The notes below the pieces were generated by a model. The model saw nothing but the letters and a program-made list of their open reading frames with translations, ran no database searches and had not been told where the DNA came from. 32,000 nt of DNA, taken from the NCBI GenBank assembly GCA_016196885.1, contig JACPWU010000058.1, positions 1-32,000 of the forward strand. The letters are read 5' to 3'. The DNA comes from Chlamydiota bacterium (GTDB taxonomy: Bacteria > Auribacterota > JACPWU01). Of this stretch, positions 1,336-31,428 are shown piece after piece. Position 1 is the stretch's first letter. Each line of letters starts with the position of its first letter. Made by a program: the position numbers and the translations under genes.

Positions 1336-1383
1336 GGACAGTTGTGGGTCGTGAGGGATGAGTCGTGAGTTAGAAATAAAAAG

Positions 1384-2582: not shown

Positions 2583-2644
2583 TCGTCGTTCGTATTTCGT
2601 TAAAAATGAGAAACAGATAACGAGTAACAACTGAATTTAGAATT

Positions 2645-2653
2645 TGCTACAAT
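2645..2653 (+). promoter_or_regulatory. Extended -10 promoter element ahead of the rml operon
   Basis: TGcTACAAT (TGn + TACAAT), 29 nt upstream of the rmlA start. No good -35. Confidence 0.35.
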
Positions 2654-2681: not shown

Positions 2682-3428
2682 ATGAAAGGCATCATTTTAG
2701 CAGGTGGACTGGGAACACGGCTTTATCCTCTTACGAAAATTACCAACAAACATCTTTTGCCCATTTATGACAAGCCCATGATTTATTATCCCCTTCAGAC
2801 GTTAGTGGAGGCAGGGATTGAAGACATCATGATTGTGACGGGCGGAAATCATGCGGGAGATTTCTTGAAGCTTCTGGGCAATGGTAAGGATTTTGGTTTG
2901 AAGGATTTAAATTATACTTATCAAGAGGGAGAAGGAGGAATCGCGGCTGCGCTTGCCCTGACGGAACATTTTTCAGATTCTGAAAAAGTGGTGGTTATTT
3001 TGGGAGATAACATTCTTGAGAAATCTATTAAGGAAGAAGTGAAGGCGTTTGCAAAACAAGCAAAAGGGGCCAGAATTTTATTAAAAAAGGTCTCGGATCC
3101 CGAACGTTTTGGGGTGCCTGCGCTAGAGGGGAAGAAAGTTGTTCGCATTGAAGAGAAACCTAAAGAGCCTCAGAGTCCCTATGCGGTGATTGGAGTTTAT
3201 ATGTATGATCCCAGTGTGTATGAAATTACGAGAACTTTAAAACCTTCTGGGCGTGGCGAGCTTGAAATCTCAGATGTGAACAATGCCTATATTCAGCAAG
3301 GAACGATGACGTGGAATTCGATTGAGGGTTGGTGGACGGATGCAGGAACTTTTGAATCGCTTTTCCGTGCATCACAATTGGTGGCAGAGAAGAAATTTCA
3401 AGTTTTGGGTTCCGGGTTACGAGTTTGA
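2682..3428 (+). CDS. rmlA: Glucose-1-phosphate thymidylyltransferase, short form (sugar nucleotidyltransferase)
   Basis: MKGIILAGGLGTRLYPLTKITNKHLLPIYDKPMIYYPL. AGGAGA lies 8 nt upstream of the ATG at 2682. The track start at 2676 is a TTG two codons earlier. Confidence 0.8.
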   Translation: MKGIILAGGLGTRLYPLTKITNKHLLPIYDKPMIYYPLQTLVEAGIEDIMIVTGGNHAGDFLKLLGNGKDFGLKDLNYTYQEGEGGIAAALALTEHFSDSEKVVVILGDNILEKSIKEEVKAFAKQAKGARILLKKVSDPERFGVPALEGKKVVRIEEKPKEPQSPYAVIGVYMYDPSVYEITRTLKPSGRGELEISDVNNAYIQQGTMTWNSIEGWWTDAGTFESLFRASQLVAEKKFQVLGSGLRV

Positions 3429-5315: not shown

Positions 5316-5479
5316 TCGACAAAGAGTTGCTAGACATCTTGGCCTGTCCCGCTTGTCATGGAGATGTCCAGCTGAAAGACGAAAAAATCTGCTGTCAAAG
5401 TTGCGGACGGCGTTATCCTGTTCGGGATGGAATTCCCATCATGTTGGTAGATGAGGCTGAAAAAGGAAGTGGCTCTTAA
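5312..5479 (+). CDS. Trm112/UPF0434-family small zinc-ribbon protein
   Basis: MIDKELLDILACPACHGDVQLKDEKICCQSCGRRYPVRDGIPIMLVDEA. ATGA overlap with the rmlD stop. Confidence 0.8.
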   Translation: MIDKELLDILACPACHGDVQLKDEKICCQSCGRRYPVRDGIPIMLVDEAEKGSGS

Positions 5480-9950: not shown

Positions 9951-12047
9951 ATGATCAAACGTTTCATCAAAAAAATCTTTCCTCGACGGTATCGCTTGCT
10001 TAAAAGTCCTATTCATCGCCTCGCCTCTTTCGATGAGGGATATTATTTGAGGCGTTATCCGGATGTGAAGGAAGCGGTTCTTCGAGGCCAGTATGCCCTA
10101 GGTCTGGAGCATTTTTACACGGTCGGCCAGTTTGAGGGCCGCCGGCCGAACGCCCTTTGGAAAATTATTTTTCCTCAAGCAGGAATGACAAAGAGCAGTG
10201 AGAAAGGTAGATTTTTTCCTTCAACAAATCTCGATCTTCTCATCCCTTCCTCTCTCAATCCTGAGTTGAGCATTGTCATGGATGGCTCTGATGTCCATCA
10301 AAATATTTTTCTTCTTCTTTCATCTCTCTTGAGAGAAAAACTGGATTCTTTTGAAATCATAATCGTGAATGGTCAAGATAAAGAGGGGATGAAACGGGTT
10401 CAGGGCCTCAAAATGATCTCACTTGAGAAGGGTCAATCTTTTTTCGAAAAGACAGTAGAAATCGTAAAAGGAACATATATTTTATTCTTAGCGGGAGAAA
10501 TACGCCTCTTTGCAAAAAGTGTTTCCTCGGCTTTAGAAGTGATGAAATCCTCTGAAAGAATGGGTGCAGTGGGAGCGAAGATCATGGATGCAAGGGGAGT
10601 TTTATTAGAGGCGGGGGGAGTGATTTCACAACAAGGGTTGTGTGAGAGTCGTGGGTTTGGGGATTTACCTTTCCGTTCGCAGTATCTCTACAAAAAAGAA
10701 GTAGACTTTTTCTCCCCCTCTTTTTTTCTCACCCGAAAAGATTTTCTGATGAAGTATCAAGAGGCTTTGGCAAGAGATTGGGTCGGCTATTGCCTGAGGC
10801 TTCAAAAGGATGGATGGGAAATCGTTTATCATCCCTCTTCCATGGTGGTTTATTTTGGGGAGTCATTTTTGCAAAGTCAAAAAAAGTTTCAACCCCCTGT
10901 GAGAAAGATTCAAAATAAAAAAAGGATTTTGTATTTAGATGATCGCATCCCTCACATCTTTCTAGGATCTGGCTTCCCCCGAACCAATGTCATTTTAAAA
11001 CTCATGGTCCAGATGGGATATTTTGTCACCTTTTATCCTAAAACAGATTCCTACGAAAAACTTCCCAGGATTTATCAGGACATTCCTTTAGAAGCAGAGC
11101 TCGTGGTAGACCGAGAGCTTACCCATTTTGAAAAATTTTTGTCTGGAAGAAAAGGCTTCTACGACATTCTGTTCGTCAGCCGTCCTCACAACATGCAGAC
11201 GATTCAGGAGCTGCGTCAAAAAAATCCAGATCTCTTTCGAAATCTAAAAATCATTTATGATGCTGAAGCGGTTTTTGGATTAAGGAAGGTGAGGGAAATG
11301 GAATTGAAGGGTAAACACTTTTCTGAAGAAGAAGTGAAAAAAATGATCTCAAAAGAGATCGAGATCACAAAGAATTGTGATGCCGTGATCTCCGTTTCAG
11401 AGAAAGAGGCCTCACTTTTTCGAAATCAGGGATGTCGTGATGTTCATGTCTTGGGACATGCGGTAGAGGTTTTACCCACCCCCCCTTCCTTTCATGAAAG
11501 AAAAAATTTTTTATTCGTTGGACCTTTAAACTATTGTCATTCTCCCAATGCAGATGCCGTTCTTTGGTTTTCTCAAAAAATATTTCCTCTGGTTCTCAAG
11601 TCTCTGTCAGAAGAAGTAAACTTCACCCGGGTTGGGTATAATCAGTGCCGTATCATTGAAAGGTTGAAACATTCCAGAATCAGGCAATTGCCCAGAATAG
11701 AGGATTTGAAGGCAACCTATGATGCCTTTAAAATATTTGTGGTTCCCACCCGATTTTCGGCGGGCATCCCACTGAAGGTTTTGGAGGCTGCTGCCCATGG
11801 GATTCCTGTGGTGGCTACTCCCTTGGTAGCTGAGCAGTTGGGCTGGAAGAATGGGTACGAACTTTTGGTGGGACAGGATGAACAAAGATTCGCGGAACAA
11901 TGTGTCCGATTGTATCAGGATGAGAAATTATGGAATCACATTCGTCAAAATGCACTTCACAGGGTTCAGCAAGATTGTTCGATGGAAAATTTTTCTGGGC
12001 GTCTTAAGATGGTTTTGGAAGAAACATTGAATAGCGTAAGAGTTTAG
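9951..12047 (+). CDS. Two-domain glycosyltransferase (N-terminal GT2-like fold, C-terminal GT4/GT-B)
   Basis: 698 aa. N-terminal YYLRRYPDVKEAVLRGQYALGLEHFYTVGQFEGRRPN motif. GT2-like block ELSIVMDG...EIIIVNGQD...YILFLAGE...VGAKIMDARG. C-terminal GT-B block FVVPTRFSAGIPLKVLEAAAHGIPVVATP. Confidence 0.8.
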   Translation: MIKRFIKKIFPRRYRLLKSPIHRLASFDEGYYLRRYPDVKEAVLRGQYALGLEHFYTVGQFEGRRPNALWKIIFPQAGMTKSSEKGRFFPSTNLDLLIPSSLNPELSIVMDGSDVHQNIFLLLSSLLREKLDSFEIIIVNGQDKEGMKRVQGLKMISLEKGQSFFEKTVEIVKGTYILFLAGEIRLFAKSVSSALEVMKSSERMGAVGAKIMDARGVLLEAGGVISQQGLCESRGFGDLPFRSQYLYKKEVDFFSPSFFLTRKDFLMKYQEALARDWVGYCLRLQKDGWEIVYHPSSMVVYFGESFLQSQKKFQPPVRKIQNKKRILYLDDRIPHIFLGSGFPRTNVILKLMVQMGYFVTFYPKTDSYEKLPRIYQDIPLEAELVVDRELTHFEKFLSGRKGFYDILFVSRPHNMQTIQELRQKNPDLFRNLKIIYDAEAVFGLRKVREMELKGKHFSEEEVKKMISKEIEITKNCDAVISVSEKEASLFRNQGCRDVHVLGHAVEVLPTPPSFHERKNFLFVGPLNYCHSPNADAVLWFSQKIFPLVLKSLSEEVNFTRVGYNQCRIIERLKHSRIRQLPRIEDLKATYDAFKIFVVPTRFSAGIPLKVLEAAAHGIPVVATPLVAEQLGWKNGYELLVGQDEQRFAEQCVRLYQDEKLWNHIRQNALHRVQQDCSMENFSGRLKMVLEETLNSVRV

Positions 12048-13184: not shown

Positions 13185-13362
13185 TTAACTCCCCTCAGCC
13201 CAGCAAGGGAGGCTTTTCTACCAGTGGCAGTGCAAAGCCGACTGCGGTAGTAGATGTTTTTTTACAGCTCTCACCTTAAATAAAAGGGGGGCTCTGCGCT
13301 CTTTGGGTGAGGGGAGTTTTTTTACTCTCCCCTTTAGTTAAAAGGGGAGTCGGAGGGGTTAA
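13185..13362. repeat. TAAC/GTTA-ended C-tract/G-tract intergenic repeat, copy A (MITE/REP-like)
   Basis: Shares its 5' end (TAACTCCCC...) and a 3' module of about 50 nt (GAGGGGAG..ACTCTCCCCTTTAG..AAAGGGGAGTCGGAGGGGTTAA) with copy B at 31239-31428. Internal hairpins at 13218-13250 and 13327-13349. Confidence 0.55.
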
Positions 13363-15520: not shown

Positions 15521-16701
15521 CATCAAAAATTAAAGTCTGTCACGTGATTACCCGTTTGATCATCGGAGGGGCACAGGAGAATACCCTTTTCACGGTAGAG
15601 GGTTTATCTCAAAAAAATGATTTTGACGTGACCTTGGTTTATGGTCCAGAAAAGGGACCCGAGGGAGATTTAAGTTTGAAAATGAAGTCGCCCGCGCGTT
15701 TTAGGACAAGGGTCGAACCCTTCTTGAGAAGGAATATTCATCCCCTCTATGATGCGATGGCCTTTTTGAGACTTCTTATTTTTTTTCGCAAAGAGCATTT
15801 TCAAATTGTGCACACGCACAGTTCCAAGGCTGGTATTTTGGCCCGCCTCGCTGCCTTTTGTGCAGGTGTTCCTGTCATTGTTCATACCATTCATGGCCTC
15901 CCATTCCACGCCTTTCAAAATATTTGGGTGAATCGTTTGTACCGATGGCTTGAGCGTGTGTCGGCCCTTTGGACACAACGCATCATTGCTGTTGCGGATG
16001 CCATGACGCGGCAGGCAGTCCAGGCCAGGGTTGCCCCCCAAGAAAAATTTATGACCATTCACAGCGGGATGGACTTGGACGTTTTTATTCATCCCCCCAG
16101 AGATGTTCAAATGATCCGAGAAAAGTGGGGACTCTCTCCCACCGATTGGGTGGTGGGAAAAATTGCGCGGCTCTTTTATCTTAAAGGACATGAATATCTC
16201 ATTCAAGCGGCCTCAAAGGTGGTGAACGAATTTCCCAAGGTGAAATTTTTGCTGGTGGGAGATGGTATTTTAAAAGATGATTTAAAGAAAAAAATTGCAG
16301 AGTCAGGATTGGAAAAAAATTTTATTTTTGCAGGCCTCGTTTCTCCCGAGCAAATCCCCTCCATGATTGCTATCATGGATGTGGTGGTGCATGTTTCTTT
16401 GCGGGAAGGCTTGGCCAAGGTTTTGCCTCAGAGCTTGGCTTCGGGCAAGCCCGTGATTGCCTTTGATTTGGACGGTGCCAATGAAGTGGTGCGGGATGGG
16501 GTGAATGGATTTCTCATTCGTCCTTTTGATATTTCTTCTTTAAGCGAGGCCATTTTAAAATTAAAAAGAGATCCAGGGCTTTCCCGTCGTTTAGGTCAAC
16601 GGGGTCTTGAAACCGTGGATCCTTATTTTAGGAAAGAGTACATGGTGGGGAGGATTGAGGAAGTTTATAGGGGGTTGATAGGGATTGATGATAGAATATA
16701 A
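15517..16701 (+). CDS. Glycosyltransferase family 4 (GT-B fold)
   Basis: 394 aa. N-terminal VITRLIIGGAQENT and C-terminal EGLAKVLPQSLASGKPVIAFDLDGANEVVRDGVNGFLI. ATGA overlap. Confidence 0.9.
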   Translation: MTSKIKVCHVITRLIIGGAQENTLFTVEGLSQKNDFDVTLVYGPEKGPEGDLSLKMKSPARFRTRVEPFLRRNIHPLYDAMAFLRLLIFFRKEHFQIVHTHSSKAGILARLAAFCAGVPVIVHTIHGLPFHAFQNIWVNRLYRWLERVSALWTQRIIAVADAMTRQAVQARVAPQEKFMTIHSGMDLDVFIHPPRDVQMIREKWGLSPTDWVVGKIARLFYLKGHEYLIQAASKVVNEFPKVKFLLVGDGILKDDLKKKIAESGLEKNFIFAGLVSPEQIPSMIAIMDVVVHVSLREGLAKVLPQSLASGKPVIAFDLDGANEVVRDGVNGFLIRPFDISSLSEAILKLKRDPGLSRRLGQRGLETVDPYFRKEYMVGRIEEVYRGLIGIDDRI

Positions 16702-16710
16702 AATGAGTTT

Positions 16711-16838
16711 AATAACCAATAACCAATTTCAAATGACAAATGAATAATCCAATGTCCAATTCCCAACGATTTAAGCCTTGGGAAATTAGCGTTGGTCCTT
16801 GGAATTAATTTGTCATTGATAATTGAGAATTTGTCATT
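16711..16838. repeat. Heptamer-phased word array folding into a long imperfect hairpin
   Basis: Left arm is 8 x 7 nt: AATAACC AATAACC AATTTCA AATGACA AATGAAT AATCCAA TGTCCAA TTCCCAA (16711-16766). Right arm (16778-16838) is its imperfect reverse complement (TTGGGAA...ATTTGTCATT twice, 21 nt apart). Confidence 0.6.
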
Positions 16839-16842
16839 CGCT

Positions 16843-17946
16843 ATGTGGTCACTCGTTTATATTTATCTTTTGCTCTTTTCTTTCGCGGTGTCTTGGCTTT
16901 GCGTTCATTTTTGCGCAAGGCTGGCTTTGAAATTAAACCTAATGGATGAGCCAGGGCCTCGGAAGATTCAGAAGAAGTCCATTCCTCTCTTGGGAGGTTT
17001 AGGGATGATCTTGGCGTTTGTAATCACGGTTTGGATCAGTTTAGTTTTATTAAAAATATTTTCTCATCATGCTTTTTTTCTCTCCCATTTTCCAACTGAG
17101 CTTCTCAGGTATGTGCCAGGTGTCTTGAAGGTTTCTCATAAGTTATGGGCCATTGCCTGGGGGAGTTTTCTCGTTTTTTTGGTGGGTTTGGTAGATGATT
17201 TTAGGGAACTGGGCGCTTGGCCAAAACTCATTGTTCAAATCATCGCTGCCAGCCTTCTCTTTTTTGCGGGGGTGCGAATCACCATTTTCTCTTCGCATTT
17301 GATGGTGAGTTTACCCTTGACGGTTCTGTGGGTGGTGGCCATCACCAATGCCTTTAATCTCTTGGACAACATGGACGGTCTTTCAGCGGGCATTGCATGG
17401 ATCGGTTGTTTTTTTCTCCTGGTGATTACCGCTTCTCAAAATCAGTATTTTGTGAGCGTTTTGATTTGCGTTTTGATGGGGGCCCTCGGGGGATTCTTGA
17501 AGTTAAATTTTAATCCTGCGAAAATTTTCATGGGGGATGCCGGTAGCTATTGGATTGGGTATCTCATGGCCAGCGTGACCCTGTTGGCCACTTATTATGG
17601 GAAGGGAAATCCCAATTTCTTCTCTGTTCTGAAACCCGTTTTTATCTTGGGGGTTCCCCTTTATGATCTTTGCAGTGTGATTCTGATTCGGCTCTATCAA
17701 GGACGCTCCATTTTTGAGGCAGATCGTCAGCATTTCTCTCATCGTTTGATCGCCTTGGGCATGGGACAAGGGGGGGCCGTTCTTTTCCTTTACTTGCTCT
17801 CCTTTTCCTTTGGGACTTCCTCTCTCTTTCTCGAAAAAATTTCTAAATGGCAACTTTATTTTGTAGGACTGCAGGCGTTATCCTTTGTGTCAATCATAGC
17901 CCTTCTTGAATATTTTGGACGCAAAAGGGAGAATTCGTCCACTTGA
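16843..17946 (+). CDS. Polyprenyl-phosphate N-acetylhexosamine-1-phosphate transferase (WecA/MraY family, initiating enzyme)
   Basis: VDDFRELG, NAFNLLDNMDGLSAG and IFMGDAGSYWIGY motifs, about 10 TM segments. Start taken at the ATG at 16843; the track TTG at 16792 lies inside the hairpin repeat. Confidence 0.85.
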   Translation: MWSLVYIYLLLFSFAVSWLCVHFCARLALKLNLMDEPGPRKIQKKSIPLLGGLGMILAFVITVWISLVLLKIFSHHAFFLSHFPTELLRYVPGVLKVSHKLWAIAWGSFLVFLVGLVDDFRELGAWPKLIVQIIAASLLFFAGVRITIFSSHLMVSLPLTVLWVVAITNAFNLLDNMDGLSAGIAWIGCFFLLVITASQNQYFVSVLICVLMGALGGFLKLNFNPAKIFMGDAGSYWIGYLMASVTLLATYYGKGNPNFFSVLKPVFILGVPLYDLCSVILIRLYQGRSIFEADRQHFSHRLIALGMGQGGAVLFLYLLSFSFGTSSLFLEKISKWQLYFVGLQALSFVSIIALLEYFGRKRENSST

Positions 17947-19829
17947 TTTCAACTGCAAAGGCCCACTCGATTCTGGACCGTATTCTAAAAAAAACATTGT
18001 CATACGGTCTGATCCTGCTGATGACTCTTCGTCCCTTGGTTTCAGGAATGGCAGAGCCGTCTTCAAATGTTTTCTTTTTTGTTGGAGCCCTCTTTCTCTT
18101 TTTCGTTTGGTTTTTAAAGTCTGTTTTAAGAGGCGAGATTTTTTTTCGAAAGACTCCCCTTGATTTTTTACACCTCATTTTTTTGTGCGCCCTCGGCTTG
18201 TCATGGTCTCAATCCATCCATCGCTATGAAGGGATTCCATTTATTCTCAATATGCTCACGGTCATTCTTGTTTACTGTTTAATCATTCAAACGCATGAAA
18301 ATGAGGCAGATTCGGCCCGCCTGATTTTATTTTTATTGATGACGGCAAGTATCGTTAGCTTCTATGCCCTTTATCAAAGGCTTTTTGGGCTTCATGAAAC
18401 CTTTCAATATTTGGTAGAACACCATGTCCAGATTGAGAAATTAACCACGGCTTTTAAACATCGTTTAACGAGCCCTCGCGTCTTTGCAACATTGATTTAT
18501 CCCAACGCCTTGGCTGGGTATTTGCTAAGCATTATTCCTTTAGCGCTTTCAACGATCCTCATTAAAAAAGGAGGGTTTTATCGGAAAGTGGCCATTGTTT
18601 CTATCATGGGAGGTGTGTTGGTTTTTCTTTTGTGTGAGAAACCTCTTTGGATGATCGCGGGCGGGGTGCTGGGCATTTTTTATCCTTTTCTTTACCTTCT
18701 TGCTTTTTTTCTGACCCTTTCAAAAGGGGGATGGGCCGTTTTCTTTTTGATGAGAGTCATGGCCTATTTTCTTTTTTATCGAGAAATCTCCCCTCGTTTT
18801 AAAAAACTATTTCTCTTGGGGGTTGGATTGTTAGAAATGGGGGGATGTTTTTTTCTCATGAGACATGATCCCGATTTTCTTTTCAAGGCTTTTAAATCTT
18901 TTGAGGTGCGCTGTCAGTATTGGCAGGCGGCAGGCGGGATGGTGAGGGATTATCTGGGTTTGGGGGTGGGACCTGCGGCCTTCGGTTCTCTTTATGCGCA
19001 TTATCAATTGCCTAGCGCAGAGGAGACGCGCATGGCGCACAATAATTTTTTGCAAGTGGCCTCGGAATTGGGAATCATCGGGGGTGTTGCTTTTCTTCTG
19101 ATTTGGCTTGTTCCCCTCATCAAGGGTTTGAAGAAATTCCAATTTTCTTCTCCCATTGAGAGAGGAGCTCTTTTTGCAAGTTTAGCCTTCGTCCTGCATG
19201 GGCTCGTAGATTTTGATCTTTATGAGCCTGCCCTGGCGATGAATGCCTGGGCATTCTTGGCGCTTTTATCGTGCGGGCATTCGGAAAAAAGGCATGGGTT
19301 TTCCTTTCGATGTGAGAGTTCCAAAATGAAGGGGGCTCTGATGATCGCGGGTCAAGTTGTGGCCGTTTCTTTGATTTTGCTCGTGCGGTCTTATGATCAG
19401 GCTGAGAATTATTTTAGGCAGGCTGTCGAGGCCCGGGCTCAAAAAAAATGGGAAGAGGCCGGGTGGGCTGTGGAAAGATCTCTCCAATTTTGTCATTTGA
19501 ATCCCCAAGCCTATGTCTTGAAGGCAACTCTCAACGAGCGTGAAAAAAAATGGCATGAAGCCATCGCTTCGTATGAAGAGGCCATCCAAAGAGATTCACA
19601 TAATCCCCTTTTTCCCTATCGTCAGTCGCTTCTTTATGAACGTTTGGAAAAAGAAGAGGGTAAAAGTTATGCTTCCCAGATTGAGGCGTGTTTAAAGAAA
19701 GCGATTTTTGATTATCCATCCCATGCCTCTTTGCATCTTGCCCTAGCCCATTTTTATCAAAGGGTTGGACGGCGTGAAGAGGCCTTGGTAGAATATAAAG
19801 AAGCGACTCGCTTGGGTCGTAACCCCTAA
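17943..19829 (+). CDS. O-antigen ligase (Wzy_C/WaaL-like) family membrane protein with C-terminal TPR repeats
   Basis: 628 aa, polytopic N-terminal part of about 450 aa with AHNNFLQVASELGIIGGVAFLLIW. The C-terminal part of about 150 aa has TPR-like repeats (YEEAIQRDSHNP..., HFYQRVGRREEALVEYKEA). TTGA overlap with the upstream gene. Confidence 0.85.
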   Translation: MISTAKAHSILDRILKKTLSYGLILLMTLRPLVSGMAEPSSNVFFFVGALFLFFVWFLKSVLRGEIFFRKTPLDFLHLIFLCALGLSWSQSIHRYEGIPFILNMLTVILVYCLIIQTHENEADSARLILFLLMTASIVSFYALYQRLFGLHETFQYLVEHHVQIEKLTTAFKHRLTSPRVFATLIYPNALAGYLLSIIPLALSTILIKKGGFYRKVAIVSIMGGVLVFLLCEKPLWMIAGGVLGIFYPFLYLLAFFLTLSKGGWAVFFLMRVMAYFLFYREISPRFKKLFLLGVGLLEMGGCFFLMRHDPDFLFKAFKSFEVRCQYWQAAGGMVRDYLGLGVGPAAFGSLYAHYQLPSAEETRMAHNNFLQVASELGIIGGVAFLLIWLVPLIKGLKKFQFSSPIERGALFASLAFVLHGLVDFDLYEPALAMNAWAFLALLSCGHSEKRHGFSFRCESSKMKGALMIAGQVVAVSLILLVRSYDQAENYFRQAVEARAQKKWEEAGWAVERSLQFCHLNPQAYVLKATLNEREKKWHEAIASYEEAIQRDSHNPLFPYRQSLLYERLEKEEGKSYASQIEACLKKAIFDYPSHASLHLALAHFYQRVGRREEALVEYKEATRLGRNP

Positions 19830-19888
19830 CCCCTCCCATCACCCCGGAAGGGGCCGTTTCACGGAGGGAGGGGAAAACAAGAGTTTTC
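19821..19888. repeat. Short C-tract/G-tract hairpin cluster on the ligase stop codon (possible truncated relative of the TAAC repeat family)
   Basis: TAACCCCTAACCCCTCCCATCACCCC. CCCCTCCC (19830-37) pairs with GGGAGGGG (19866-73). Inner CCCC-GGAA-GGGG (19842-53), then GAAAAC-AAGA-GTTTTC (19873-88). Confidence 0.45.
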
Positions 19889-20368: not shown

Positions 20369-20562
20369 TGACAAAGCGAATACGGCGGTTTCTGAAATTA
20401 TTCTGTGGTTGGTCTCTTCTTGCTATTGGAATAGTCGGTTTATTCCTTCCCTTTCTTCAAGGGATTCTCATGATCGTGAGTGGTTTGGCACTCTTAGCGA
20501 CAGAATACCCTTGGGCAAAGGGCTGGCTTGAGGGAATCAAAAAGAAGATAAAGAAAAAATGA
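20368..20562 (+). CDS. Small two-TM membrane protein, PGPGW-family-like
   Basis: 64 aa. ...LLAIGIVGLFLPFLQGILMIVSGLALLATEYPWAKGWL... GTG start sharing one base with the aroQ stop. Its stop overlaps the next start (ATGA). Confidence 0.55.
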   Translation: MTKRIRRFLKLFCGWSLLAIGIVGLFLPFLQGILMIVSGLALLATEYPWAKGWLEGIKKKIKKK

Positions 20563-21602: not shown

Positions 21603-21666
21603 CGCGAAGTGTCATTTCTGAGACAAAAGTATCCCTTTTTTCTTTAGACTCCTGTTGAAACGAAAG

Positions 21667-21675
21667 TGCTATAAT
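21667..21675 (+). promoter_or_regulatory. Extended -10 promoter element
   Basis: TGcTATAAT (TG 21667-68, TATAAT 21670-75). No convincing -35. Confidence 0.35.
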
Positions 21676-21733: not shown

Positions 21734-21810
21734 GAGTCCACAGAGGGTCGTCTAAAATCCACGGGACAGTGGTTTCGTGGACTATGGACTATCGACTGTG
21801 GACTTTTTTT
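21734..21810 (+). terminator. Long hairpin with T7 run, 22 nt upstream of the eRF1-like gene start
   Basis: AGTCCACAG (21735-43) pairs with CTGTGGACT (21796-804), followed by TTTTTTT to 21810. Inner TCCACG/CGTGGA (21758-63 / 21775-80). The 3' arm is built from heptamers TGGACTA TGGACTA TCGACTG TGGACTT (21778-21805). Confidence 0.5.
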
Positions 21811-21832
21811 AAAGTAAATAGGAGATGATGCC

Positions 21833-22969
21833 ATGATCAGCTTTCGACAAATAGAAGAATTGATCAACATGAAAACAGATTCTCTCCCCTTGGTCAGTTT
21901 TTATTTAGGCATGGAGGGGAGCCGTTATTCAAAAAAGAATTGCGAAAATGCCTTGAAGGATTTGATGAAAGAAAGAGAGAAGGATATTCAGAATTTTGAA
22001 AAGAATAAAAATCATAAACTCTCTTTAGAAAAAGATTTTGAAAAAATTCGTCAATATGTGAAAAATGAATTGGATTGGAAAGGGAAAAAAGGTGTGGCCA
22101 TTTTTTCTTCTTCCTCTATGAATTTCTGGCAAGTTTATTTTTTGCCCAGTTCTGTGAAAAATACTTTGGTCATTGATCATACACCTTACATTCGTCCGTT
22201 GATTGCCCTTTTTGATGAATATCGCCGATTTTGCATGGTCTTGGTGGATAAATCCAAGGCGAGAATTTTTGAGGTGTTCTTGGGCGAAATTGAAGAACAT
22301 ACAGAGTTTACAGATGCCTTGCCTCGAAAAGCCAAAGCAGGGGGCTGGAAGGGATATGAAGAAAATCGTATTCAGCGGCATTTAACAGAAGAGGTACGGA
22401 AGCATTTTAAAAAGGTTGCGGATTCACTTACGGATCTTTTTAAGTTGCATCATTTTGATTGGTTGATTTTAGGAGGGCATCGGGCAGAGTTTCCTGAGTT
22501 TGAGAAAGAGCTACGTCCTTTTTTAGAGGACAGAATTGTGGCTCGTTTGGAAATGGATTTACGCGCTTCTCAGGAAAATATTTTGGAGAAGGCGCTGAAG
22601 GTTGAGAAGGAGATTTCCAAAGAGCATGGCGAGACTTCTGTGAAAAATCTTTTAGAACTCACAGGAGAAAGGCAAGCCGTGACAGGCGTTCTCGGAACTT
22701 TAACAGCTTTTCGAAGAGGGCAGGTTCACAGCCTTGTGGTCAGCCGCGATTATCAGGTGCCTGGAATGCGGTGTTTGAAATGCGGTTATTTGGATCAAGA
22801 ACATAAGAATTGTCCTCAGTGTAAAGAGCCTTTACAGGCGATTCCTGATTTGGTGGACGATTTGGTAGAGGCAGCCGTCACTCAAGGGTGTAAGGTTGAG
22901 TATGTTTCTGGAAATGGTCGGGATCGTCAGTGGGGTGGGATCGGGGCGATTTTGAGGTTTAAAGGTTGA
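21833..22969 (+). CDS. Bacterial archaeo-eukaryotic release factor (eRF1/Pelota-like, baeRF) family protein with a Zn-ribbon insert
   Basis: 378 aa. M-domain-like LPRKAKAGGWKGYEENRIQRH..VRKHFKKVAD compares with eRF1 LPKKHGRGGQSALRFARLR..VRKVAE. C-terminal WGGIGAILRF compares with eRF1 GGIGGILRY. CLKCGYLDQEHKNCPQC. AGGAGA SD at 21820-25. Confidence 0.8.
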   Translation: MISFRQIEELINMKTDSLPLVSFYLGMEGSRYSKKNCENALKDLMKEREKDIQNFEKNKNHKLSLEKDFEKIRQYVKNELDWKGKKGVAIFSSSSMNFWQVYFLPSSVKNTLVIDHTPYIRPLIALFDEYRRFCMVLVDKSKARIFEVFLGEIEEHTEFTDALPRKAKAGGWKGYEENRIQRHLTEEVRKHFKKVADSLTDLFKLHHFDWLILGGHRAEFPEFEKELRPFLEDRIVARLEMDLRASQENILEKALKVEKEISKEHGETSVKNLLELTGERQAVTGVLGTLTAFRRGQVHSLVVSRDYQVPGMRCLKCGYLDQEHKNCPQCKEPLQAIPDLVDDLVEAAVTQGCKVEYVSGNGRDRQWGGIGAILRFKG

Positions 22970-22981
22970 AGGATTACAAGT

Positions 22982-23098
22982 ACAGGACGGTTTCATTTAG
23001 AGTTTTGAATTTGAGTTTTAGAATTTGTTTCGGATTTCGAATTTCGTGCTTCGGATTTGGTATTTTAATTTGATCATTGTGATATAATGCCGTCCTGT
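22982..23098. repeat. Inverted-repeat-bracketed simple-sequence tract (GAATTT/GGATTT words, 7-nt phase)
   Basis: ACAGGACGG (22982-90) pairs with CCGTCCTGT (23090-98). Interior includes TTTCGGA TTTCGAA TTTCGTG CTTCGGA TTTGGTA (23028-62), preceded by TTGAATT TGAGTTT TAGAATT. Confidence 0.5.
23080..23088 (+). promoter_or_regulatory. Extended -10 promoter for the CBS-korAB-CBS operon
   Basis: TGaTATAAT (TATAAT 23083-88). The ORF-track ATG at 23087 lies inside this box. Confidence 0.4.
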
Positions 23099-27036: not shown

Positions 27037-27087
27037 TTGACTTTATGCGAGTAATTATGTATATATAAAGTATATATTTATATATAC
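27037..27087 (+). promoter_or_regulatory. Sigma70-type promoter overlapped by a TA-rich near-palindrome that runs up to the start codon
   Basis: TTGACT (27037-42), 17-nt spacer, TATATA (27060-65). GTATATATAAA-GTATATA-TTTATATATAC spans 27059-27087, and the ATG follows at 27088 with no SD. Confidence 0.45.
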
Positions 27088-28227
27088 ATGTATAAGAGAA
27101 TATTAACCTTAGATAAGTTTTCTCATGAGAGTTCTTTCTTGTGGGGACCCCGTCAAACTGGGAAGAGTACTCTGTTAGAGCAGCTTTTTCCTGATGCGCC
27201 TTATTATGATCTTTTACTTTCAGATGTGGTCACTCGTTTCCAAGTGAAACCCTCGCTTTTAAGGGAAGAGCTTTTATCCAGTCCCCCTCACGGGCCAGTC
27301 ATTCTCGATGAAATCCAGAAGGTTCCAGAACTTTTAGATGAAATCCAGTGGCTGATGACTAAGAAAAATATCCATTTTATTCTGTGTGGATCTAGTGCAA
27401 GAAAACTGAAAAGGACGGGAGCTAATCTTTTGGGAGGCAGGGCCATTCGGTATCAACTTTATCCTCTCGTGTTTCCTGAAATCTCTGATTTTGATCTCAT
27501 AAAGGCTTTGAATCATGGTTTGCTCCCACGTCATTATCTTTCTAAAGAGCCACAGGAACTCGTCGAGTCCTATATTGCCGATTACCTTCAACATGAAATC
27601 GCTGCGGAGTCTCTTGTACGTAATCTCCCTTCCTTTCACCGCTTTCTTGAAGTGGCGGCTTTCAGCAATGGTGAGATTCCTGTTTTTAGTAACATTGCGT
27701 CAGATTGTGGTGTGAGCTCTCCCACCGTGAGGGAGTATTTTGAAATTCTACAGGATACTCTGATAGGCTCTTTTTGTCCGGCCTATCTGAAACGGCTTAA
27801 GCGTCGTTTAATTCAGTCACCTAAATTTTATTATTTTGATGTGGGGATCGCAAATTTTCTTCTTAAAAGAGGTTTTATTCAATATGGATCGGAATCTTTT
27901 GGGAGAGCTTTTGAACATTTTATCTACCAAGAAGTAATAGCTCATTCGCAATACTCTCGCAAGAAGTACCCTGTCAGTTATTGGAGAACTTCTTCAGAAT
28001 ACGAAGTGGACTTTATTCTGGGGGACGCCATGATTGCACTAGAGGTGAAAGGAGTCCCGCTGGTCAATTCAAAACACCTTAAAGGTCTTCAGATGTTTTG
28101 CGAAGATTATGCAGTGAAAAAAGCTATAGTGGTTTCGCTGGATCCCCGGCCTAGAAAAATGGGTGACATTGAAATTCTTCCCTGGAAAAAATTTCTTGAA
28201 GCGCTTTGGTCTGGAGAACTTATTTAA
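27088..28227 (+). CDS. AAA-type ATPase with DUF4143-like C-terminal domain
   Basis: 379 aa. Walker A FLWGPRQTGKSTLL, Walker B PVILDEIQ. C-terminal ...YWRTSSEYEVDFIL... restriction-endonuclease-like tail typical of the AAA_14/DUF4143 family. Confidence 0.85.
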   Translation: MYKRILTLDKFSHESSFLWGPRQTGKSTLLEQLFPDAPYYDLLLSDVVTRFQVKPSLLREELLSSPPHGPVILDEIQKVPELLDEIQWLMTKKNIHFILCGSSARKLKRTGANLLGGRAIRYQLYPLVFPEISDFDLIKALNHGLLPRHYLSKEPQELVESYIADYLQHEIAAESLVRNLPSFHRFLEVAAFSNGEIPVFSNIASDCGVSSPTVREYFEILQDTLIGSFCPAYLKRLKRRLIQSPKFYYFDVGIANFLLKRGFIQYGSESFGRAFEHFIYQEVIAHSQYSRKKYPVSYWRTSSEYEVDFILGDAMIALEVKGVPLVNSKHLKGLQMFCEDYAVKKAIVVSLDPRPRKMGDIEILPWKKFLEALWSGELI

Positions 28228-28823: not shown

Positions 28824-28843
28824 GGAAATTTTTTTTAATTTTC

Positions 28844-28864
28844 AATTGAGACTCTGTCTCAATT
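28844..28864. promoter_or_regulatory. Candidate operator: perfect 9-3-9 palindrome
   Basis: AATTGAGAC-TCT-GTCTCAATT, 21 nt downstream of the Fur-family stop and 22 nt upstream of the barrel-protein ATG. Confidence 0.55.
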
Positions 28865-31221: not shown

Positions 31222-31238
31222 GACTATGGAAAATGAAG

Positions 31239-31428
31239 TAACTCCCCCATCCCCTCTTGTTATGCGTTTTGTAGTCGCCCCATTTATGGGGCTGCCCGAT
31301 GAATCGGGCGACTACAAAAAAACATAATGGGGAGGACTTTCATCCTCTACGATGATCTCGAAAGATCATTGGAATTAAACTAAGAGGGGAGAGACTCTCC
31401 CCTTAGATAAGGGGAGTTGGAGGGGTTA
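31239..31428. repeat. TAAC/GTTA-ended C-tract/G-tract intergenic repeat, copy B (MITE/REP-like)
   Basis: Same 5' end and 3' module as copy A. Internal 13-bp stem TTTTGTAGTCGCC/GGCGACTACAAAA (31267-79 / 31307-19) encloses two mini-hairpins. Further hairpins: GAGGA/TCCTC, ATGATCT-CGAA-AGATCAT (31352-69), CTCCCCTT-AGAT-AAGGGGAG (31397-416). Its last base is the A of the next ATG. Confidence 0.55.

Follow-up and report, generated by a model that had tools for sequence, protein, structure and literature searches.

Heptanucleotide repeats in bacteria reportedly go back to Mazel et al. in 1990, with the short tandemly repeated repetitive (STRR) sequences of cyanobacteria. The analysis presented here concerns arrays of 7-nt words, often folding into hairpins, in the intergenic spacers of a 32,000-nt stretch of DNA from an uncultured bacterium (positions 1 to 32,000 of contig JACPWU010000058.1; hereafter the window), and in particular the spacer at 16702-16842 (site C) that precedes the gene for a WecA-like initiating glycosyltransferase. 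In heterocystous cyanobacteria (Calothrix and Nostoc/Anabaena), STRRs are tandem intergenic 7-nt units of a few to about ten copies, one and the same unit turns up at many places in a genome, the set of words is specific to the genome, and the function is not known (PMC4692102). The arrays described here are alike in these respects, the recurrence of a unit having been seen in two relatives, but belong to another phylum; those of the window are also short and very degenerate, with foldback hairpins as their usual arrangement, and their units (AATAACC, AATGACA, TGGACTA, TTTCGRA, and GTCGTGA) are not the canonical ones of STRR1 (CCCCAGT), STRR2 (TTGGTCA), or STRR3 (CAACAGT). More generally, heptamers are the most abundant unit of long simple sequence repeats (SSRs) in many bacteria, and polymerase slippage has been proposed as their source (Mrazek 2007, as summarised in PMC4679880 and PMC4692102). 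In such repeats, 7 nt is reportedly the preferred non-triplet unit, is kept out of coding DNA, and is patchily distributed across phyla (Mrazek, Guo & Shah 2007). The present arrays share with that class both the excess of head-to-tail 7-nt units and the confinement to non-coding DNA and gene ends; unlike long SSRs, most window arrays are not perfect repeats, and their signal resides in imperfect units and inverted pairs.

Other parallels come from heptamers and hairpins at gene junctions. The GGGAATC and GGGGAYT repeats that Rehm et al. 2015 (PMC4692102) described in Xanthomonas and Nostoc are likewise intergenic, near the end of the upstream gene, and mostly between co-directional genes, and the Xanthomonas GGGAATC repeats often form inverted pairs whose length and sequence vary at the same junction between close relatives. 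These repeats, however, are made of one G-rich word that can form G-quadruplexes, whereas the arrays here use many AT-rich words without such potential. The TAACTGA repeats of marine Beggiatoaceae (MacGregor 2015, PMC4679880) are also heptamers at junctions that may provide stops in all frames and that overlap upstream stop codons, but they consist of a single word in fixed orientation to start codons, whereas here the words are diverse and show neither an orientation rule nor stop enrichment. Repetitive extragenic palindromic (REP) sequences, the hairpin-forming REP pairs known as REPINs, and MITEs (miniature transposable elements with inverted repeats) are similar in being intergenic hairpin repeats that are dispersed in a genome and lengthen operon spacers, and a foldback family in a relative of the source genome behaves in this way. 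REPs are conserved palindromes of 20-40 nt that bear a GTAG or CGTC tag and are accompanied by a REP-associated tyrosine transposase (RAYT; PMC3733652); the heptamer hairpins have no shared sequence, tag, target-site duplication, or known transposase. The feature therefore belongs to a class previously recorded in cyanobacteria and Xanthomonas, here in a new lineage and with words of its own.

The window is nearly all of a 32,384-nt contig (locus tags HYS08_) of a metagenome-assembled genome (MAG) that is labelled 'Chlamydiae bacterium' at NCBI. Evidence from the source genome is confined to these 32 kb, and a genome-wide test for a 7-nt period was replaced by about 140 kb from three genomes of the clade plus controls. 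Loci of relatives were fetched through homologues of three window proteins and were thus chosen by protein homology rather than by repeat content. They derive from H7 (MAG GCA_016178055.1; loci L002, L057, and L062), S (the Logan assembly of SRR22387960; L003, L061, and L063), J (a JGI metagenome; L064), and a sister genome (GCA_964640155.1; L004, L059, and L065), with gene maps that are the collection's own calls supplemented by a few small genes added by eye. Searching genome contigs with the single window protein baeRF10 gave no matches, and searching with an alignment gave only the sister and 50 unrelated distant loci (896 kb), which served as a control panel. All window spacers were taken unselected from the gene map (2.3-2.5 kb of intergenic DNA) and compared with dinucleotide-preserving shuffles; local runs were scored as self-matches at lag p.

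Across all window spacers, self-identity at lag 7 was 0.299-0.304, compared with 0.264 in the shuffles (z 4.0-4.3). It was raised at lag 14 (z 2.2-2.6) and mildly at lags 5 and 6 (z 2.1-3.0), and did not rise at lags 8-13 (|z| below 2). Local runs gave the same picture, with 7 at lag 7 (1.04 expected) and 6 at lag 14 (1.0 expected), counts reached in 0 of 300 shuffles, and no enrichment at any other period from 3 to 15. Tandem Repeats Finder independently placed period-7 arrays at 16711, 21778, and 23028, along with one of period 14 at 22995. The heptamer strings quoted in the preliminary description, made from the sequence alone, were all found exactly where it had placed them, at five sites (A to E; Table 1). 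When these were taken out, the remaining spacer DNA had no lag-7 excess (z 0.8); it follows that the preliminary description had found all of the arrays, and that they are discrete islands making up about 15% of the intergenic DNA rather than a general property of the spacers. Its statement that arrays occur at most operon junctions was too strong, as clear arrays were found in 5 of about 16 window spacers of at least 40 nt, with three further two-unit arrays on gene 3' ends. Lag-7 runs per kb were about five times fewer in the coding DNA of the window than in its spacers. When the best stretch at each site was judged within shuffles of that same spacer, lag-7 identity was 71% in the left arm of site C (35/49 matches, P<0.001), 81% at site D (P about 0.002), and 54% over 63 nt at site B (P about 0.001); site E was moderate (P 0.005-0.04), and site A (57%, P 0.02-0.09) and the right arm of site C (48%) were marginal when taken alone (P 0.02-0.1).

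Table 1. Positions of heptamer arrays and associated hairpins in the window.
Feature	Position	Strand	Words and setting
Array A	1341..1375	+	GTTGTGG GTCGTGA GGGATGA GTCGTGA GTTAGAA; after thrB stop
Array B	2583..2645	+	TCGTCGT TCGTATT TCGT..., then GAATTTA GAATTT; begins at stop of flippase-like gene
RmlA-tail array	3407..3425	+	GGGTTCC GGGTTAC GAGTT; encodes non-conserved RmlA C-terminal tail (stop 3428)
Spacer C	16702..16842 (141 nt)	.	From GT1 glycosyltransferase stop (16701) to WecA-like GT4 ATG (16843)
Site C, left arm	16711..16766	+	AATAACC AATAACC AATTTCA AATGACA AATGAAT AATCCAA TGTCCAA TTCCCAA
Site C, right arm	16778..16838	+	Inverted partner of left arm; inverted pairs I1-I3
Wzy-end array	19820..19834	+	TAACCCC TAACCCC T; across stop (19829) of Wzy_C/TPR gene
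Hairpin D	21735..21811	+	5' arm 21735-21763; 3' arm is array TGGACTA TGGACTA TCGACTG TGGACT (21776-21804)
Array E and period-14 neighbour	22990..23062	+	TTTAGAG TTTTGAA TTTGAGT TTTAGAA TTTG / TTTCGGA TTTCGAA TTTCGTG CTTCGGA TTTGGTA; Tandem Repeats Finder: 22995-23027 period 14, 23028-23046 period 7; upstream of extended -10 (TGATATAAT) of CBS/OFOR operon
Minor two-unit array	28832..28847	+	TTTTTAA TTTTCAA; after Fur gene; score 6.5, individually at chance level

The whole of spacer C makes up a single long, imperfect foldback hairpin whose arms are phased in heptamers. Its minimum free energy (MFE) is -31.7 to -32.9 kcal/mol (z -2.1 to -3.0), the outer arms (16711-16745/16804-16838) are 74% and the inner arms (16755-16768/16790-16803) 79% complementary, and a perfect 10-nt inverted pair is included (AATGACAAAT/ATTTGTCATT). 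The left arm is the top lag-7 run of the window (score 14; period 7 at 16711-16727 by Tandem Repeats Finder), and the right arm contains AATTTGTCATT twice, in copies 21 nt, or three heptamers, apart. The 3' arm ends 4 nt before the start codon of the GT4 gene, which has no Shine-Dalgarno sequence, and no T-run follows the hairpin. The lengths of GT4 homologues (362-369 aa) favor ATG 16843 over TTG 16792 as the start of this gene. The window contains no second copy of site C, none of the relatives' elements is significantly similar to it, and an exact scan of JGI metagenomes with its core (AATGACAAATGAATAATCCAATG) returned 0 matches. Rfam 15 gave no match at gathering score in the whole window and none at E<=1 in 16600-16950. 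A 14-codon mini-ORF (open reading frame) at 16704-16748 was considered as a leader peptide and rejected, as the junction is conserved in no relative.

The excess of period 7 was seen again in the relatives. The H7 locus L002 gave a lag-7 z of 7.3 with 8 runs (0.8 expected), and the S locus L003 gave 7 runs (1.06 expected). Together, the window, H7, and S (107 kb) held 36 lag-7 runs, or 3.35 per 10 kb, compared with 0.47-0.84 for periods 5, 8, 10, 11, and 13; the sister had 0.71 lag-7 runs per 10 kb. In the control panel, lag 7 reached 0.66 runs per 10 kb versus 0.38-0.50 for other periods, a mild general excess like that known from heptamer long SSRs, with strong outliers in Deinococcota. Heptamer arrays are indeed conspicuous in some Deinococcota too: long, drifting ones were found in a Deinococcota MAG (L053; 2350-2403 and 3813-4028) and in Calidithermus chliarophilus (L019; 9563-9623, 13747-13843, and 18333-18371), built from GCGTTTT (12 copies), GGCTATC/AGCTATC/GACTATC, and GACCCTC (12 copies), with GGCTATC/AGCTATC common to both genera. 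Per kb of junction DNA, lag-7 runs amounted to 3.64 in H7, 1.78 in S, 1.43 in the window, 0.67 in the sister, and 0.42 in J, and coding DNA had only 0.03-0.09 per kb versus the 1.4-3.6 of junction DNA in the window, S, and H7. Of the top-scoring runs (score >= 9.5), 19 of 23 were intergenic.

At orthologous junctions, the genomes either have arrays that are not homologous to each other or lack an array. Between the GT1 and GT4 genes, where the window has its 141-nt AATAACC/AATGACA foldback, H7 has 39 nt with AACTTTG AACCTTA AACTTTA AACTTTT running across the stop codon, S has 106 nt with a GTTTACAGTGTACGG/CCGTAAACTGTAAAC hairpin of GTxTACx units, and the sister has 40 array-free nt. The junction from the flippase-like gene to rmlA has TCGTxxT units in the window, ATGGTKA units across the stop in H7 (ATGGTTA ATGGTGA GTGGTGA), and no array in S or the sister; that from rmlA to rmlB measures 20 nt in the window, 166 nt in H7, nearly all of it one foldback element, and -4 to 13 nt in S, J, and the sister. 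Between FGGY and GDPD genes, H7 has a foldback and S an ATAAGYT array, and in the sister the genes overlap without an array. A hairpin some 170 nt long (DNA fold z -3.2) lies upstream of uvrD in S (L003), at a place taken by AAAATTTTTTTTT in the sister (L004). Where arrays run over a gene end, they supply the stop codon or a new C-terminal tail, as in window RmlA, whose orthologues diverge completely after a conserved SQLVxEK, and at three gene ends in a relative; GTTTAAAGTTTAAAGAC stands at two H7 gene ends, those of alr and baeRF10. The expectation that ORF callers would be misled by such arrays was borne out in part: it is mostly real C-terminal tails and stops that are rewritten, and no whole spurious genes are created.

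Within a genome, arrays resemble each other. When exact heptamer words were compared in any rotation and on either strand, 12 array pairs within genomes shared a word (2.3 expected, P<0.005), compared with 3 between genomes (3.5 expected); the recurrence within genomes comes from H7 and S and was not seen among the window's own arrays in its 32 kb. The TAAGYTT arrays at three S loci match each other by BLAST. H7 has two foldbacks (L057:17045-17195 and L062:5895-6040) that match at 85.8% identity over 141 nt (E 1e-39), a stretch that takes in a non-repeat centre of about 60 nt; a third, more diverged copy and a fourth, weak one are also present, and all lie within 48 kb. Such identity of foldbacks at different junctions indicates that copying between junctions occurs. 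No target-site duplication was visible at the H7 copies, and Pfam tables for about 200 kb of clade loci contained no transposase, RAYT, or Y1 transposase. Scanning JGI metagenomes with the core of the H7 element (AATGCCATTGCAAGGGAGA) gave 10 matches, all by chance and without flanking similarity. The claim that the arrays often form hairpins was borne out by the foldback at site C, the hairpin arm at site D, and a significant inverted partner within 150 nt for 12 of 22 clade arrays. This tendency is partly due to units that are quasi-palindromic (GGTNACC, AAGCTT+1, and GTNTAC+1; 8 of 26 units versus 4.1 expected, P 0.02), such that a direct array is automatically self-complementary.

At a probability of roughly 0.55, the arrays are lineage-specific, STRR-like heptanucleotide short tandem repeats that are made by slippage, copied in some cases, and tolerated at gene junctions. 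It is observed that they are periodic, restricted to the clade, and confined to junctions, that they turn over rapidly, and that genomes have word families of their own and dispersed copies; that slippage is the generating step and that the arrays are nearly neutral is inferred. A replicating strand would misalign by one 7-nt register, giving birth to arrays and reshaping them, and the units would then drift by point mutation, such that words change gradually along an array. Many arrays go with an inverted copy in long imperfect foldback hairpins and, at least in H7, whole foldback units are also copied to other junctions. Survival is limited to spacers and last codons because a 7-nt unit shifts the reading frame elsewhere. 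The effects of the arrays, namely longer spacers, RNA or DNA hairpins in operons, and rewritten stops and C-terminal tails, would be mostly incidental, with an occasional hairpin that looks usable as a terminator or attenuator, as at site D. The earlier proposal of a common generative process, as opposed to random AT-rich spacer, is supported by the period-7 excess in independent loci of two relatives, the non-homologous arrays at orthologous junctions, and the words shared within genomes. Of the three options then listed, slippage fits best, but a component of copying and dispersal is needed in addition, given the 85.8%-identical H7 foldbacks. Several points weigh against this reading. The only duplicate assemblies (Logan versus MAG contigs) are 100% identical and so show no polymorphism in unit number. 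Slippage alone accounts neither for the preference for 7 nt and the five- to ninefold gap in density between close relatives nor for the inverted partners of non-palindromic arrays. Transposition-like copying is real, as the H7 copies share a non-repeat centre, and could be the primary process. It should also be noted that the source genome is represented by its 32 kb only.

The main alternative is one in which copying comes first: the hairpins may be non-autonomous mobile foldback elements, MITE- or REPIN-like, at gene junctions, with direct-only arrays as decayed half-elements and a periodicity that is structural, for example, reiterated sites for a transposase or other protein. Eukaryotic Foldback elements, with long inverted ends built of short tandem repeats, have a similar architecture, and the H7 family with its shared centre, the filled and empty orthologous sites, and the mutually matching S arrays would all suit such elements. 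This account is possible but tentative, as site C is without a second copy in the window, the relatives, or (by exact scan) the JGI metagenomes, the H7 copies lack a target-site duplication, and no transposase or RAYT gene was seen in the clade loci; moreover, many arrays are direct-only, short, or placed across stop codons, which local growth fits better. A more speculative and rather unlikely variant is that heptamer-armed foldbacks are previously undescribed, self-propagating micro-elements driven by a factor peculiar to the clade. Whether a polymerase or repair variant or a protein reading nucleic acid in steps of 7 nt, this factor would create the register and copy hairpins to gene 3' ends, where they would rewrite stop codons and modulate operon polarity; if this were true, the gradient of density from H7 through S, the window, and the sister to J would make the heptamer preference approachable by comparative genomics.

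Readings that give the arrays a function in RNA or translation fare less well. The hairpins might be selected operon RNA elements, such as partial terminators, attenuators, or mRNA stabilisers like the REPs and bacterial interspersed mosaic elements (BIMEs) of Escherichia coli, for which heptamers are the easiest way to build. Most hairpins do begin a few nt from a stop codon in co-directional gene strings, hairpin C ends just before a start codon without a Shine-Dalgarno sequence, and hairpin D is strong, is followed by a T7 run in what would be the baeRF10 5' leader, and is 9 kcal/mol more stable as sense than as antisense RNA. Among 10 hairpins, however, sense RNA was the more stable in only 4 (mean difference -0.3 kcal/mol), and general selection on sense-strand RNA was rejected on this ground, with site D as the exception. 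A terminator-like T-run, present at site D, is missing at site C and after most of the relatives' hairpins; the sister's orthologous junctions work without any hairpin; and neither sequence nor position is conserved between relatives. Selected RNA elements are accordingly an unlikely explanation. A smaller chance still attaches to the arrays being all-frame stop insulators, or binding arrays for a heptamer-reading protein such as a cold-shock/OB-fold protein with one unit per 7 nt. Stops in all frames do occur, as TGA or TAA at site A and as GTTTAAA x2 at two H7 gene ends, and the three TGAs first pointed out, at 1352, 1359, and 1366, do each occupy a separate frame. Yet the description of the arrays as rich in stop codons did not survive counting: stop density was 0.067 per nt in 27 arrays and 0.067 in their own shuffles, stops in all three frames were present in 10 of 27 arrays in sense and 5 of 27 in antisense, and the mean number of frames with a stop was 1.67 in sense, 1.53 in shuffles, and 1.44 in antisense. 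Sites D and E and several of the relatives' arrays lack sense-strand stops altogether. Arithmetic, not enrichment, produces the all-frame effect, and the insulator idea was rejected on these counts, its hairpin half being unsupported in view of the absent sense-strand bias; the lack of stop enrichment and the lack of that bias both speak against selection at the level of RNA or translation. For a sequence-specific binder, the word families within genomes would be suitable, and CspB is cited as binding heptamer units (in PMC4679880), but the words differ among the window sites without a single motif. Finally, the five sites could be chance products of visual selection in AT-rich spacer. Site A and the right arm of site C are marginal individually and there is no lag-7 excess outside the five sites, but the unselected test and its repetition in loci chosen by protein homology make chance barely credible.

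The remaining arrays and their surroundings deserve brief description. Window genes lie almost all on the + strand and comprise thrB, a flippase-like LPG_synthase_TM gene, rmlA, rmlB, rmlD, a gene for an MFS transporter, deoxyhypusine synthase (on the - strand), Wzm/Wzt, six glycosyltransferases, the WecA-like GT4 initiating transferase (16843-17946), a Wzy_C/TPR protein, aroQ, the release-factor-like baeRF10 (21833-22969), a CBS / 2-oxoacid:ferredoxin oxidoreductase (OFOR) operon, Fur, and others. Hairpin D (21735-21804) has 5 G-U pairs and is followed by its T7 run 22 nt before the baeRF10 start codon, and it resembles a terminator or attenuator. About 160 nt upstream of this bacterial eRF1-like gene, at 21664-21672, is an extended -10 element (TGCTATAAT); hairpin and T7 run would then belong to the 5' leader, suggesting that the release-factor-like gene is controlled by attenuation. 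Such sites are local hints only, as consensus promoter and terminator scans of the window were at background overall (24-25 promoter-like sites versus 20-24 expected). Array A lies just upstream of a promoter-like site for an uncalled rpsU gene (ribosomal protein S21; TTG start, 57 aa) at 1441-1614, in an apparent 350-nt spacer after thrB; the gene is annotated there in relatives. The flippase-like gene that follows probably starts well upstream of ATG 1686, as the upstream translation (1611-1686) is conserved in a relative, with no canonical in-frame start; a terminator-like hairpin at 1635-1660 was rejected as conserved coding sequence of this gene. Two more hidden small genes, both conserved in relatives, encode a Trm112/YcaR-like zinc-ribbon protein (5316-5450; ILACPACHGDVQL) and a PGPGW-type membrane protein (20371-20558; GLFLPFLQGILMIVSGLALLATEYPWAKGW). 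The GT4 gene overlaps the Wzy gene by 4 nt in the window, and in H7 (L057 11104-11507) a HicA/HicB-like toxin-antitoxin pair stands between them on the opposite strand.

Repeats of other kinds are present as well. The spacer at 31222-31427 is the most structured of the window (MFE -93 kcal/mol, z -7.9) and includes, at 31267-31320, two inverted GTAG-tagged palindromes (GTAGTCGCCCCATTTATGGGGC / GCCCGATGAATCGGGCGACTAC), a genuine REPIN-like unit that is unrelated to the heptamer arrays. About 120 nt of this spacer are 83-90% identical to H7 L062 at approximately 10455-10580, in a different gene context, and H7 proteins are only about 60-66% identical to those of the window. A GC-rich motif (GGGGAGTYGGAGGGGTT) is common to the spacers at 13342-13360 and 31409-31427 (19 nt, 95% identical) and is preceded by a CTCTCCCCTT...AAGGGGAG hairpin; a similar hairpin (CCCCTCCC...GGGAGGGG) follows the Wzy gene at 19830-19873, and this GC-rich set forms a second repeat family, one that is not built of heptamers. 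A (TA)n-rich palindromic AT tract (TATATATAAAGTATATATTTATATATAC) at 27056-27094 lies directly upstream of a DUF4143/AAA_14 ATPase gene, the H7 homologue of which is located elsewhere, adjoining the REPIN-like element. The Logan contig from SRR12113387 is 100% identical to the window contig over 9.7 kb.

For annotation, the arrays matter in that they lengthen spacers, shift stops, and alter C-terminal tails, and they tempt gene-calling programs into starting the downstream gene too early, as with TTG 16792 in place of ATG 16843. Records of heptamer repeats in bacteria date from 1990, and heptamers have been recognized as the favored unit of long SSRs since 2007, with neither their origin nor their function established. 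The lineage examined here offers related genomes of high, medium, and low array density, together with orthologous junctions that are filled, differently filled, or empty, and such genomes and junctions are material for separating the contributions of slippage, copying, and selection.

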